64,000 nt of DNA, from assembly GCA_023379265.1 (NCBI GenBank), contig JAMCUI010000012.1, positions 27,936-91,935 of the forward strand, read 5' to 3'. The DNA is from Patescibacteria group bacterium. GTDB taxonomy: Bacteria > Patescibacteriota > Microgenomatia > 2-02-FULL-39-11. The notes below the pieces were generated by a model. It searched no databases, was not told where the DNA came from, and saw only the letters and a program-made list of their open reading frames with translations. Shown one piece after another: positions 20,508 through 62,025 of this stretch (within the stretch, counting starts at the first letter, position 1; each line of letters begins with the position of its first letter). The translations under genes were made by a program, and so were the position numbers.

Positions 20508-22295
20508 CTAACTTACCACTTCCCCTTCCTGGATATCTTCCTTCTTGTCTTTTTTATCCTTTTTCTCTTCCTTTTCCTCCTTGTTGTCTCCTGCCTGCTG
20601 CTGGGTTTGCTGGGACTGCTGCTGATACATCGCCTGCCCGATCTTCTGAAGGGAATCGGATAGATCTTTTGTCTTTGTCTCCAAATCTTCCTTGGTTCCC
20701 GTCTCCAGAATTGATTTTAATGCCGAAATTTTCTCATCAACTTCCTTTTTGACATCGGCGGCTACTTTATCGCCTGCATCTTTAAGCGACTTTTCAGCCA
20801 CATATATCATATTGTCTGCCTTGTTACGGGCCTCCACTTTGCCTTTTTTAGCCTCATCTTCTGCAGCATGGGCTTCAGCTTCCTTGGTCATTTTTTCAAT
20901 TTCGTCCTTTGAAAGCCCTGTGGAACCAGTAATTTTGATACTCTGACTCTTACCAGTTGCTTTATCTTTGGCTGAGACGCTCAATATACCGTTTGCATCA
21001 ATATCAAAAGTGACTTCTACCTGTGGGATACCGCGCGGCGCAGGAGGTATACCATCAAGTATAAATCGGCCCAATGATTTGTTATCAGCAGCCATGGGCC
21101 TCTCCCCTTGAAGGACATTTATTTCTACAGATGTCTGGTTGTCTGCGGCTGTTGAAAATACCTCTGTTTTTGATGTCGGCACAGTCGTATTTCTGGTTAT
21201 AAGAGGAGTCAGGACCCCTCCGTATGTCTCCACCCCCAGTGTCAGGGGCGTCACATCCAAAAGCACTACATCCCGCACTTCCCCTGTCAGTACACCTGCT
21301 TGTACTGCAGCACCAATAGCTACGACTTCATCTGGATTGACAGTACGGTTGGGATCTTTACCGAAATACTCCTTTACTTTCTCAATGACCTTAGGCATTC
21401 TGGTCATTCCGCCAACCAAGACAATTTCATCAATCTTGTCTTTTGTTATCTTGGCATCCTTAAGACAAGCTTCAACCGGACCGATTGTATTATCAATCAA
21501 ATCGCCAACTATTGATTCCAGTTTGGCTCGGGTCAACTTGTGCACGAGGTGTAAAGGTCCCTCCTTTCCCTGGGTTATAAACGGCAAGTTTATCTCTGTT
21601 TCCAGACTGCTTGAAAGCTCTATTTTTGCTTTCTCAGCTGCGTCACGCAAACGTTGAAGTGCCTGAGGATCTTTTCTCAAATCTACATTGTTTTCTTTCT
21701 TGAATTCATCAGCCAGATATTCAAGGATTTTCTTATCAAAATCGTCTCCTCCCAGGTGAGTATCCCCGTTGGTAGCCTTGACTTCATAAACACCTTCACC
21801 CAATTCCAGAACCGATATATCAAAAGTGCCTCCACCAAGATCGTAAACCGCCACAGTATGGGCATGTTTTTTGTCCAAACCGTAAGCAAGTGCAGCAGCT
21901 GTGGGCTCATTTAGAATTCTCTTTACTGTCAGACCAGCGATTTCCCCCGCCTGTTTGGTAGCTTGCCTTTGCGAATCATCAAAATATGCTGGAACCGTAA
22001 TGACCGCTTCACTCACTTTTTCGCCTATATGGTTTTCCGCGTCTGTCTTTATCTTTTGCAGAATCATGGCTGAGATTTCCTGAGGAGTAAAAGTTTTACC
22101 CTCAACCTCGACAACAGCCATTCCTTCACGGCCACTTTTTATCGCATACGGAAGCCATTTGATGTCATACTGGACTGACTTATCTGAAAATTTGCGACCC
22201 ATCAATCTTTTCACTGAAAAGATTGTCGATTTGGGGTTTATCACCATCTGGCGTTTAGCCACATCACCGACTATCCTTTTTATGGGATCAACCAC
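20508..22295 (-). CDS. dnaK: Chaperone DnaK (Hsp70) main body. As assembled, the N-terminal ~45 codons are separated by an 88-bp tandem duplication.
   Basis: DLGGGTFD and IDANGIL motifs and a C-terminal EEVD-like acidic tail. The ORF begins inside the ATPase domain at ...[17 protein letters not shown]. Confidence 0.9.
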
Positions 22296-22408
22296 GGAAG
22301 GAATGACATTCCTCCCTTCAGGGGTTTATCACCATCTGGCGTTTAGCCACATCACCGACTATCCTTTTTATGGGATCAACCACGGAAGGAATGACATTCC
22401 TCCCTTCA
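22233..22408. repeat. Perfect 88-bp tandem direct duplication (22233-22320 and 22321-22408) inside dnaK.
   Basis: Identical units ggggtttatcaccatctggcgtttagccacatcaccgac...cctcccttca. 88 is not a multiple of 3. Confidence 0.9.
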
Positions 22409-22497
22409 GCGGAATTTATCACTTTAGGGGAACCACCCTCCATAACTGCTACACATGAATTTGTAGTACCCAAATCTATACCGATAATTTTTGCCAT
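22318..22497 (-). other. dnaK: dnaK N-terminal fragment ([18 protein letters not shown]...), cut off by a TGA created by the 88-bp duplication.
   Basis: SD GGAGG lies 7 nt upstream of ATG 22497. Translation gives [40 protein letters not shown]..., then a stop at the duplication junction. Confidence 0.75.
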
Positions 22498-22549
22498 ATA
22501 GCCTCCTTTTTATTCAAATAACAATTAACAAATAACAATAAACAAATTT

Positions 22550-23059
22550 TCAGTTCGAGCTATTGTTTTCTGTTATCTGTTCCTTGTTTTCTGGATTACT
22601 CTTCCCGACTTTGACTTTTGCCACCCTGATAATTTTGTCTCCCAATTTATATCCCGGCAGCAATTCCTCAATCACATTGTCATCTTTACCGTCTCCTACC
22701 ACTTCTACACACTCCATTTCATTCGGATCAAATCTTTTTCCTTTTGTTTCAAGCTTTCTTACGCCCCTCCCAGAAAGCACATTCCAGAAACTTTTCAATC
22801 CTAAAGTCAACCCCTGATCGTTTATATGTTTTTCAGCCTTCTCCAGTACATCTATAACCGGTAGAAATTCTACTATAATACTCTCCAGTGCATTTTGCAT
22901 CATATCCTGACGCATCTGTGCCACCCTTTTTTCCAAATTCTGGTAATCAGCCAAGGCTCTTAAATATTTGGCTTTCCATTCTTCCGCTTCTTTTTTTATC
23001 TTATCGTCTGCCGCGGATGGATGTATACTCAATGGCTGGTTATCAGTCTTCTTATTCAT
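22550..23059 (-). CDS. grpE: Nucleotide exchange factor GrpE.
   Basis: Coiled-coil N-terminus with YLRALADYQNLEKR and a C-terminal beta domain. Sits between hrcA and dnaK. Confidence 0.8.
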   Translation of the reverse strand: MNKKTDNQPLSIHPSAADDKIKKEAEEWKAKYLRALADYQNLEKRVAQMRQDMMQNALESIIVEFLPVIDVLEKAEKHINDQGLTLGLKSFWNVLSGRGVRKLETKGKRFDPNEMECVEVVGDGKDDNVIEELLPGYKLGDKIIRVAKVKVGKSNPENKEQITENNSSN

Positions 23060-23077
23060 CTCTCAATTTTTGGAAAA

Positions 23078-60097: not shown

Positions 60098-60119
60098 ATT
60101 TACCTCCTTTTTTAAAAAT

Positions 60120-60146
60120 TTAGCACTTAATTCAAGTGACTGCTAT
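60120..60146 (-). promoter_or_regulatory. CIRCE operator between the groESL promoter and SD.
   Basis: TTAGCACTT-N9-GACTGCTAT. Minus-strand promoter TTGACA (plus 60168-60173), 17 nt, TAAAAT (plus 60145-60150), directly abutting. Confidence 0.7.
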
Positions 60147-60463
60147 TTTAATTAATGAAAAAAAACTTGTCAAGAGGTAGATTGATCTTATTCTGATTAT
60201 TAGTTACCAACCTACTTGCTAGACAGGTTGATTATTAGATGCTAATCAGTATTTGTTCTGTTTGTGATATATAAGGATGAGAAATACATCTAGAATAAAA
60301 AGTGAAGCATACAGAAATTTTTGAAGATCGCATACGGAATGTCTACTCCAACCAAATGACACACTATTAAGACCAACCATCCTTGCGAGCTAAAATTTTA
60401 TCGCGTGCTTTGAACTGTAGAAACAGTAAATATATATTTTATATATAATAAATGTAAGAATAT

Positions 60464-61057
60464 ATGCCTTCACAGAAAACGCCCGTTGCCATAATTGCTA
60501 TAATTACTCTGATTGTGGCTGTGATTTTTACACTGTCTCAAAAAAATCAAAATAAAAAAAACATGCTGGTAGGAAAAAATCCTGAAATTTCTGTAAACAT
60601 AAAAACACGAAACCAAAATATGGTACTAAAAAGCTCTGCATTTTCAGATAACCAAATTATCCCTGCAGCCTACACCTGCGACGGAAAAAATGTCAGTCCT
60701 CCTCTAACTATTGCTGAAGTTCCCGCCGAAGCCAAAAGCCTTGCTCTTATCGTTGAGGATTCAGATGCACCTGCGGGCATCTGGTATCATTGGCTCGTCT
60801 GGAATATCAATCCTGCCGCTAAAGAGATTACACAAGAAACTACAATTCATGGAACAGTTGAGGGCACTAACAGTTTCGGTAAGATTGGCTACGGCGGGCC
60901 GTGTCCCCCATCCGGCACTCACCACTATATATTTACTCTTTATGCTTTGGATTCGAACATCTCCCTTCCGCCTTCAACCACAGCCAACAAGCTGAAAGAA
61001 GCTATAGATAACCATATCATTGCCCAAACATCACTCACCGGACTATATCACCACTAA
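60464..61057 (+). CDS. PEBP-family protein (YbhB/YbcL, Raf-kinase-inhibitor-like).
   Basis: PLTIAEVPAEAKSLALIVEDSDAP, HWLVWNI, and GYGGPCPPSGTHHYIFTLYALD. Confidence 0.7.
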   Translation: MPSQKTPVAIIAIITLIVAVIFTLSQKNQNKKNMLVGKNPEISVNIKTRNQNMVLKSSAFSDNQIIPAAYTCDGKNVSPPLTIAEVPAEAKSLALIVEDSDAPAGIWYHWLVWNINPAAKEITQETTIHGTVEGTNSFGKIGYGGPCPPSGTHHYIFTLYALDSNISLPPSTTANKLKEAIDNHIIAQTSLTGLYHH

Positions 61058-61069
61058 AATAGTCCCTAG

Positions 61070-62025
61070 TTACTTTACCTTTTCCAAATATTTCTTCATC
61101 ACCCAACTTCTAACGTCATGAGGATGAAAACGGATATAATGCGGAGAAACCACTTCAGAAGTTAATCTGCCTTTCATATACCAAATTTGCAGAGACATAA
61201 ACAAACTCTCAAACATCCTAAAAATTGAGAGAATAATTTTTGCGAAAAAAGTATCCCGTTCTTCCCTCTTTCCTCTTATCTTTCTTATATTCTTCCAGTC
61301 AACAGCATTGGGTAAAAACTTTTCCGCCCAAATATTTTCCTTCATAAACACAAAGTAGGTATCACTTTTTTCCCAGAGAGGTACCAACTGGACAACTTCA
61401 TGAGCTGCAAATAGATCTCTTTCATTTTTGGCAAGCTGTAAATAACCTGCTTCCATAAACATATTCAAACAAATCTTATTCTTTATTTTTCTCCCCCTTC
61501 TTTTCCTCCTTTGTCCCAAAATACCAAAAAGGATTGTCGACAAAAATCTAGTCAACCAAAGACATCCGGAAGAAGAAATAATAATAAAATCGATATCATC
61601 ATCCATATCGGCATTCTGCAGTGCCAATGCTCCTGTGACGCCAACCAACATTATACTTGGAATATACCGTAATATATTTGCCGCCTATCGGCATTCTGCA
61701 GTGCCAATGCTCCTGTGACGCCAACCAACATTATACTTGGAATATACCGTAATATATTTGCCGCCTTTCCCGCGATTTCCATTTTTGTTCCCGACCAGCT
61801 CTCTCTTTTTTTTCTCAAGTCTACTAACTTTTTTCTACCATTCAGGAAAAACATACCATCTTTGTTTCCTAGCCAATTATGATTTTTTAGAGATTTTTCG
61901 ACTGCGCGTTGTGAAGACTTTATTCCGATAAGATATTTGTATATTTCATCAGCTCTCAAGGGATAGCTGAAAATGTCAGCATACGAGAGAGTTCTTAAGA
62001 TAGCATCTATAAGTCTCTGGGGCAT
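61070..62025 (-). pseudogene. Hypothetical ~300-aa protein (possible nucleotidyltransferase-fold N-region), split into 124-aa and 193-aa ORFs by an 80-bp tandem duplication.
   Basis: Both ORFs contain MLVGVTGALALQNAD at the junction. Removing one repeat copy restores a single frame: ...RYIPSIMLVGVTGALALQNADMDDDIDFIII... Confidence 0.6.
61606..61765. repeat. Perfect 80-bp tandem direct duplication (61606-61685 and 61686-61765).
   Basis: Identical units tatcggcattctgcagtgccaatgctcctgtgacgccaaccaacattatacttggaatataccgtaatatatttgccgcc. 80 is not a multiple of 3. Confidence 0.9.

Follow-up and report, generated by a model that had tools for sequence, protein, structure and literature searches.

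Local duplications in a contig of a Gottesmanbacteria-like bacterium probably have two unrelated causes: assembly-only repeats within genes and real, strain-variable copies of gene ends

Introduction

Are the short direct duplications that recur along a metagenome-assembled contig a property of the organism or of its assembly? A 64-kb stretch of contig JAMCUI010000012.1, referred to below as the window, raises this question. The first-pass annotation of its sequence listed five local duplications, and all five were recovered where it had placed them by repeat finding and Tandem Repeats Finder on the 64-kb window. Two of them, designated sites A and E, lie inside dnaK and a hypothetical gene, respectively. 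The other three, sites B, C, and D, are copies of gene 3' ends placed just downstream of a pilN-like gene, an FN3/Big_13 surface-protein gene, and a PEGA/SH3 gene. One systematic process had been proposed for all five. We find instead that the events fall into two kinds, and we consider it likely that these have different and unrelated causes: A and E would exist in the assembly only, whereas B, C, and D, together with a sixth site at the end of a GH39 gene, are real, old copies of gene ends whose number varies among strains.

Materials and Methods

Exact-protein look-ups found the window region in the Logan assemblies of four SRA runs; those of SRR10267473 (L002) and SRR10278331 (L003) are used throughout. 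The same kind of look-up identified an NCBI metagenome-assembled genome (MAG), GCA_023487465.1, whose 130-kb contig JAMDBJ010000019.1 (L001) is ~99.9% identical to the window. A protein-based scan added two records: a contig of a MEGAHIT MAG from a different study (L007, CAZFNL010000011.1), which is syntenic with the window at ~93% nucleotide identity, and a Candidatus Gottesmanbacteria scaffold (L008) with a MurJ identity of 68%. From the protein look-up and scan matches, L007 and L008 included, the organism is a Gottesmanbacteria-like bacterium of the candidate phyla radiation (CPR). The record of L007 is titled 'uncultured Gammaproteobacteria bacterium', a taxon label that is probably wrong given its synteny and high identity with the CPR window.

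Logan contigs are derived from a k=31 de Bruijn graph from which singleton k-mers are dropped and which is conservatively simplified with Minia3, so that each 31-mer is represented once (PMC12424806). Two copies of a repeat are never visible in such a contig, and a break at the repeat borders is obligatory if the junction k-mers are in the reads. We constructed the k=31 de Bruijn graph of the window and compared the unitig breaks that it predicts with the real ends of the Logan contigs. Apart from A and E, the window is 100% identical to the SRR10278331 contigs over positions 1-5591, 12462-28621, 28696-30929, 30985-40316, and 44070-64000; the sole differences at the compared bases are that A and E are single copy in Logan. 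The GH39 protein of the window was found in only one other record, a contig of this same run.

Results

The gene-breaking duplications A and E

Site A consists of two 88-nucleotide (nt) copies on the minus strand (22233-22320 and 22321-22408) inside dnaK (20508-22497), and site E of two 80-nt copies, also on the minus strand (61606-61685 and 61686-61765), inside a hypothetical gene (61070-62025). At both sites the copies are 100% identical and follow each other without filler, the junction joining CCTCCCTTCA to GGGGTTTATC at A and TTTGCCGCC to TATCGGCATT at E. Their description as frameshifting tandem repeats is correct, as the unit lengths are of the form 3n+1 (88) and 3n+2 (80) and the removal of one copy restores both frames. 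In the window, A leaves an N-terminal DnaK fragment of 59 amino acids (aa; 22318-22497) and a frame-shifted remainder, and E splits a 291-aa hypothetical gene into ORFs (open reading frames) of 124 and 193 aa. With one copy removed, A yields a 637-aa stop-free frame containing the 633-aa DnaK, and E yields a stop-free frame of ~300 aa. The dnaK gene of site A (HSP70/DnaK by Pfam) adjoins the genes for GrpE, HrcA, and DnaJ; for the gene at E, neither Pfam nor NCBIfam gave a match.

Both duplications are absent from the independent assembly of the same strain, Logan SRR10278331. Site A is single copy in the NCBI MAG, in the Logan contigs of two runs, and in L007, and DnaK is intact at 633 aa in four other assemblies (L001, L002, L003, and L007). 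At site E, the SRR10278331 contig has one copy and an intact 291-aa gene. The junction of A is likewise missing from GTDB-representative genomes and JGI metagenome contigs, and neither truncated product (59 aa for A, 124 aa for E) had a match in the gene index by exact look-up. Breaks at 22262 and 22380 (A) and at 61635 and 61737 (E) are predicted from the k=31 graph of the window. None of these breaks was observed, the contigs L003/L006 and L005/L016 crossing the sites unbroken, and the junctions of A and E are therefore either absent from the SRR10278331 reads or so rare there that they were lost when the graph was cleaned. We conclude that A and E lie outside the consensus genome of the strain. 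They are most likely local errors of the window's assembly; at most, they stem from minority or chimeric molecules whose sequence the assembler worked into the contig. MAGs are known to contain local errors of assembly, duplicate sequence left uncollapsed where scaffolds are joined, and miscounted repeats, including 13 errors in one CPR genome of 1.13 Mb (PMC7111523).

In-register microhomology at the borders of A and E does not exceed 1 nt. Microhomology-bounded slippage was considered for A, where the 8-mer TTTATCAC lies near both borders, and was rejected: the 8-mer is 2 nt out of register and reflects two Val-Ile-Asn motifs of DnaK.

The gene-end copies B, C, and D

Site B comprises two plus-strand copies, 28588-28649 and 28664-28725 (62 nt, 61/62 identical), of the end of the pilN-like gene including its TAA, separated by the 14-nt filler ATTGTATACATTGG (28650-28663). 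Pfam assigns PilN and then PilO here; the downstream copy is untranslated and ends 7 nt upstream of the pilO start. At site C, the end of the FN3/Big_13 surface-protein gene including its TAA is present on the plus strand at 30900-30953 and 30965-31018 (54 nt, 53/54 identical), with the 11-nt filler ACAAATTTGCT (30954-30964) between the copies. This gene (fn3/Big_13 by Pfam) is convergent with a LytR_cpsA_psr gene, and the copy ends 1 nt short of the stop of the latter. Site D, on the minus strand, consists of the gene end of a PEGA/SH3 gene (PEGA+SH3 by Pfam) including its TAG (56840-56872) and a downstream copy at 56765-56797 (33 nt, 28/33 identical), with a 42-nt filler (56798-56839). The diverged copy of D retains the aligned TAG, the two tails reading ISGQYATKQ and ISGQYTRKQ, each followed by the stop.

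The inclusion of the stop codon in the copy, which had been reported for the pilN-like and FN3 genes, holds for both copies at B, C, and D. The gene's own stop lies in the first copy, and the proteins of all three genes are intact. The interval between the original and the copy, given earlier as 16-18 nt, is 14 nt at B and 11 nt at C, with 42 nt at D, and the copy at D begins at 56765 rather than at 56781. Measured head to tail, the periods are 76 nt (B), 65 nt (C), and 75 nt (D), and 73 nt at the GH39 site described below. When gene tails were scanned against the downstream 160 nt, B, C, and D scored between 19.5 and 59.5, against at most 11 for reversed-sequence controls in the window and at most 15 for such controls overall. 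Chance cannot produce repeats of such length and similarity in 64 kb.

Sites B, C, and D are real, as they recur in independent assemblies. Both the window and L007 carry site B in duplicate, with a period of 76 nt in each, and their fillers are homologous, matching at 10 of 14 positions (ATTGTATACATTGG in the window, ATTGTATATGCTAG in L007). Only one copy of B is present in the NCBI MAG strain and in Logan SRR10267473, in which a contig passes through the site unbroken. Site C has one copy in L007, two in the window, and three, in register, in the NCBI MAG; the difference between two and three rests on MAG assemblers only and may itself be a repeat-number error. Site D is unchanged in every compared assembly that covers it, namely the NCBI MAG and the Logan contigs of three runs. 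The graph of the window predicts contig ends at 5591, 28621, and 30929 and contig starts at 28696 and 30985, and each of these falls on the exact base at which one of the Logan contigs L102, L003, L011, and L099 has an end. Because the contig ends sit at these predicted k=31 breaks, the in-frame 45-nt repeats described below and sites B and C are present in the reads of SRR10278331.

Comparison with an independent assembly, suggested by the first-pass annotation as a check, thus gave a divided answer: A and E were not reproduced, whereas B, C, and D were. The mis-join errors that it favored for all five duplications fit A and E, which an independent assembly of this strain lacks, but are refuted for B, C, and D. 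For the latter, slippage or recombination, which it had ranked as less likely, is the better description. As for overlapping contig ends, A and E fit the reading as artefacts, but there is no sign that contig ends lay there.

A sixth site and the turnover of gene-end copies

The 3' end of the GH39 gene (25815-25868, plus strand), which is convergent with murJ, is a sixth site. The window has one copy of it, as does the SRR10278331 assembly, where the Logan contig passes the site unbroken. The NCBI MAG strain, Logan SRR10267473, and L007 carry the GH39 end in duplicate, with a period of 73 nt and a diverged in-frame copy, and a single k=31 contig of SRR10267473 holds both copies. The GH39 end of the window equals the 5' part of copy 1 joined to copy 2 across their common 13-mer AACAGCTTATCGG, as would be expected for a deletion between the copies. 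With this deletion, the GH39 protein of the window strain ends in ...WTFGGRVDR instead of ...RTFDGRVDR.

Since L007, the outgroup, has both the B and the GH39 duplications, these predate the split from this ~93%-identical relative, and the single-copy states are secondary deletions. The copies of B agree at 61/62 positions within the window and at 55/62 within L007, while agreement between the two genomes is 54/62 and 56/62, and lineage-specific substitutions are common to both copies of a genome. Copies within a genome thus resemble each other at least as closely as they do their counterparts in the other genome, and the B copies evolve in concert by gene conversion. Taken together, the comparisons demonstrate the age, the inheritance, and the copy-number polymorphism among strains of the gene-end sites, as well as the co-evolution of the copies and one deletion junction within a short common stretch. 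Two deletions are seen among strains that are 99.9% identical, yet the sites are kept across ~7% divergence.

At the gene-end sites, the last 33-62 nt of a gene with its stop codon are repeated 11-42 nt downstream. The first copy still terminates the protein, which leaves the extra copy untranslated and, under the explanation that we favor, harmless; such duplications would survive because a stop-containing unit leaves the protein unchanged. Gene conversion keeps the copies alike, and recombination or replication slippage between them may alter their number, giving the deletions at B and GH39 in different strains and the one, two, or three copies at C. Both the recombination or slippage mechanism and the neutrality of the copies are inferred. 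The non-frameshifting duplications within genes of the window have only lengths that are multiples of three, 45 and 66 nt.

Fillers and frequency of gene-end copies

The fillers differ in their relation to the flanking sequence. The GH39 filler of L007 continues the similarity to the upstream coding sequence (~70% over 67 nt), like a plain 73-nt tandem unit, and the B filler shows a weak continued similarity of this kind; the C and D fillers match no flank. None of the fillers recurs elsewhere in the window, on either strand. Palindromes in the fillers of B (TGTATACA) and C (CAAATTTG) were considered as a hairpin or restriction-type footprint; the homologue of the B filler in L007 has no palindrome, and they are probably due to chance. 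A reading of the copies as a CRISPR-like repeat-spacer arrangement was also rejected. No terminator-like and no strong promoter-like site coincides with the copies, and the literature search brought up no relevant work on prokaryotic tandem duplications that span a stop codon, nor any paper for the run and assembly accessions.

This Gottesmanbacteria-like CPR lineage shows an enrichment of gene-end copies. Copies of gene tails within 160 nt downstream were found for 3 of the window's 55 genes and for 2 of the 19 genes of L007 (5/74 in total, counts that are not fully independent because the two share site B). Outside the lineage, 81 loci from metagenomes and GTDB genomes, some related and others more distant, gave a single case among 842 genes (Fisher p = 1.7e-5). 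The lone outside case, at ~1420-1460 of a Gottesmanbacteria-like metagenome contig (L028), is a perfect 20-nt tandem, TATTCGGCAATATCTGGTAA twice, that ends exactly at the stop codon.

Other repeats and strain differences in the window

Two further repeats lie within genes. The ORF 3312-5819 on the minus strand, encoding an 835-aa protein with no family match, contains in-frame 45-nt tandem repeats (5485-5730; 15-aa units, two of them identical). These are the same in the NCBI MAG, and the Logan contig end at 5591 is where the k=31 graph predicts it. A solute-binding-protein gene on the minus strand (62130-63851) has an imperfect (76%) in-frame 66-nt direct repeat (63630-63733) near its 5' end.

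The region 40460-41862 is variable among strains: two hypothetical genes have diverged alleles in the NCBI MAG strain, the first sharing only the N-terminal 109 aa and the second being 47% identical at the amino acid level. Logan contigs of two runs end at 40316 and 44070, positions that are not predicted by the repeat structure of the window. Single nucleotide polymorphisms between the window strain and the NCBI MAG are clustered at 35372-36148 and 49767-56363, with long neighbouring stretches free of them, which suggests that the clusters are imported recombination tracts. The ORF 6073-7200, as delimited, had no match on record in the exact look-up, and neither Rfam families nor tRNAs were found in the window.

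Discussion

The two kinds of duplication have different consequences for annotation. Owing to the unsupported duplications, dnaK and the 291-aa hypothetical gene would be mis-annotated as pseudogenes, and the 'frameshift' of dnaK should not be taken as gene decay in a reduced CPR genome. The break points of short-k Logan contigs, when set against those predicted from the sequence, separate real repeats from assembly-only ones without read mapping. The real gene-end duplications form a small and ordinary class of structural variation, a length polymorphism at the level of strains, although they can exchange the last residues of a protein, as in the RTFDGRVDR and WTFGGRVDR tails of the GH39 protein. 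Their enrichment in the lineage and their borders at stop codons are a modest curiosity, which would become important only if confirmed by a genome-wide survey.

Several observations weigh against two unrelated causes of the kind that we favor. A and E may still have some support among the reads, and a junction carried by fewer than about one quarter of the molecules could vanish during the cleaning of the Logan graph. Nor do A and E bear the marks of former contig ends: there are no Ns and no k=31 ambiguity, and their lengths match no single k. Their units (88 and 80 nt) are close to those of the real sites (65, 73, 75, and 76 nt), which under two causes is a coincidence. For the real sites, a simple tandem duplication does not account for the homology ending 0-1 nt past the stop codon at every one of them, a position that random unit borders would rarely give, nor for the fillers of B and C, which have no clear match in either flank. 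The borders, the fillers, and the enrichment keep a lineage-specific process or a recombinational origin alive, at low probability.

One alternative that takes up several of these points is a single, ongoing, lineage-specific process that makes duplications of 65-90 bp, of which B, C, D, and GH39 would be the old survivors, and A and E the newest products, real alleles of low frequency or very recent origin that the assembler traversed as loops. The similar unit sizes at all six sites (65-88 nt) would be explained, as would a continuum of copy identity that runs from ~70% (GH39 in L007) through 85% (D) and 98% (B and C) to 100% (A and E), and the strong enrichment of gene-end copies in the lineage. 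The multiples of three among the within-gene duplications look as if selection had filtered a random process, and a de Bruijn contig needs the junction k-mers to be present in some reads. We nevertheless regard this alternative as doubtful, as the absence of a branch at A and E in the identical-strain Logan contigs limits such alleles to under ~25% in that run, it is implausible that a viable population would have two gene-destroying alleles within 64 kb of its consensus, and A and E, unlike the real sites, lack a filler and lie away from stop codons. Over ~58 kb compared between the NCBI MAG strain and the window, moreover, no private perfect duplication was found in unique sequence. A fuller form of the proposal seems unlikely to us: a process specific to this lineage and still active would duplicate ~65-90 bp such that one edge of the unit falls at a stop codon or gene end, A and E would be true minority alleles born of the same general tendency, and selection would maintain the gene-end copies although they are often deleted. 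Candidates for such a process would be fork stalling with template switching where tightly packed genes meet, or one-sided illegitimate recombination of imported alleles.

It is also quite improbable that the gene-end copies originated not as tandem duplications but as scars of recombination with foreign or diverged DNA. Such scars could arise by one-sided homologous and illegitimate joining of a donor allele, with homology stopping at the stop codon as the intergenic DNA differs, or by an att-type duplication remaining from an integrated element that had brought a gene end of its own and of which nearly everything was subsequently lost. An origin of this kind would account for the stop-codon borders at all sites and for the B and C fillers, which, besides having no clear match in either flank, occur nowhere else in the window. 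The differences between copies also resemble allelic divergence of coding sequence, with three synonymous and two conservative codon changes at B in L007 and the two tails of D with the stop kept. Against it stand the absence of any integrase, transposase, or other element from between the copies and from their surroundings, where the neighbouring genes are housekeeping or envelope genes; inserts of only 11-42 nt; the similarity of the L007 GH39 filler to the upstream coding sequence; and the lack of a visible long donor tract in the NCBI MAG contig (L001), whose 5 mismatches to the window are all confined to copy 1, with 3.5 kb of identical sequence upstream. That all five duplications are assembly artefacts, contig-end overlaps or mis-joins, is very improbable. 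The unsupported state of A and E would agree with it, as would the copy number of two versus three at C in two MAGs, an error of a type that assemblers do make (PMC7111523), but B, C, D, and GH39 recur across different pipelines, two of them in another species-level lineage, the copies at the real sites carry substitutions, co-evolve, and have homologous fillers, and both GH39 copies stand in one k=31 contig. We give practically no credence to the downstream copies being template repeats, and the gene ends variable repeats, of a diversity-generating retroelement. The copies do lie at the 3' ends of surface-protein genes, and at B and C the lone mismatch sets an A of the downstream copy against a C or G of the gene. 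However, no reverse transcriptase was found in the 64-kb window or in the retrieved parts of its flanks, adenine accounts for merely 1 of 5 mismatches at GH39 and 1 of 5 at D, the copies are short (33-62 nt) and include the stop codon, and both B copies of L007 carry a C at the mismatch position.

Two unrelated causes remain the explanation that we favor, and each kind of duplication can be set beside a known system. The MAG assembly errors described by Chen et al. (2020; PMC7111523) are a parallel to A and E, undiverged duplicates that disrupt conserved genes and that an independent assembly of the strain does not contain; two in 64 kb is above, yet not far from, 13 per 1.13 Mb. A and E differ from them in showing neither Ns nor join marks and in having different lengths that fit no single k-mer size.

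For the gene-end copies, one point of comparison is the integration of phage 21 or the element e14 in icd of E. coli, where the element brings a replacement 3' end and displaces the original one. In both cases an in-frame, slightly different 3' end is followed by an insert and then by the displaced original 3' end with its stop. Here, in contrast, the insert is 11-42 nt long and contains no integrase or element genes, and near-total loss of an element would be needed at each of four sites in 64 kb. The other comparison is with loci of the variable number tandem repeat or minisatellite type. The gene-end copies differ from these in that the unit always ends at the stop codon, that the short fillers separating the copies have no clear match in either flank at B and C, and that the sites are enriched many-fold in one CPR lineage, none of which is predicted by ordinary slippage. 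They are like them in their head-to-tail arrangement with periods of 65-76 nt, in a copy number that varies among near-identical strains, in a deletion junction that in one case lies within a common stretch of 13 nt, and in copies that evolve in concert.

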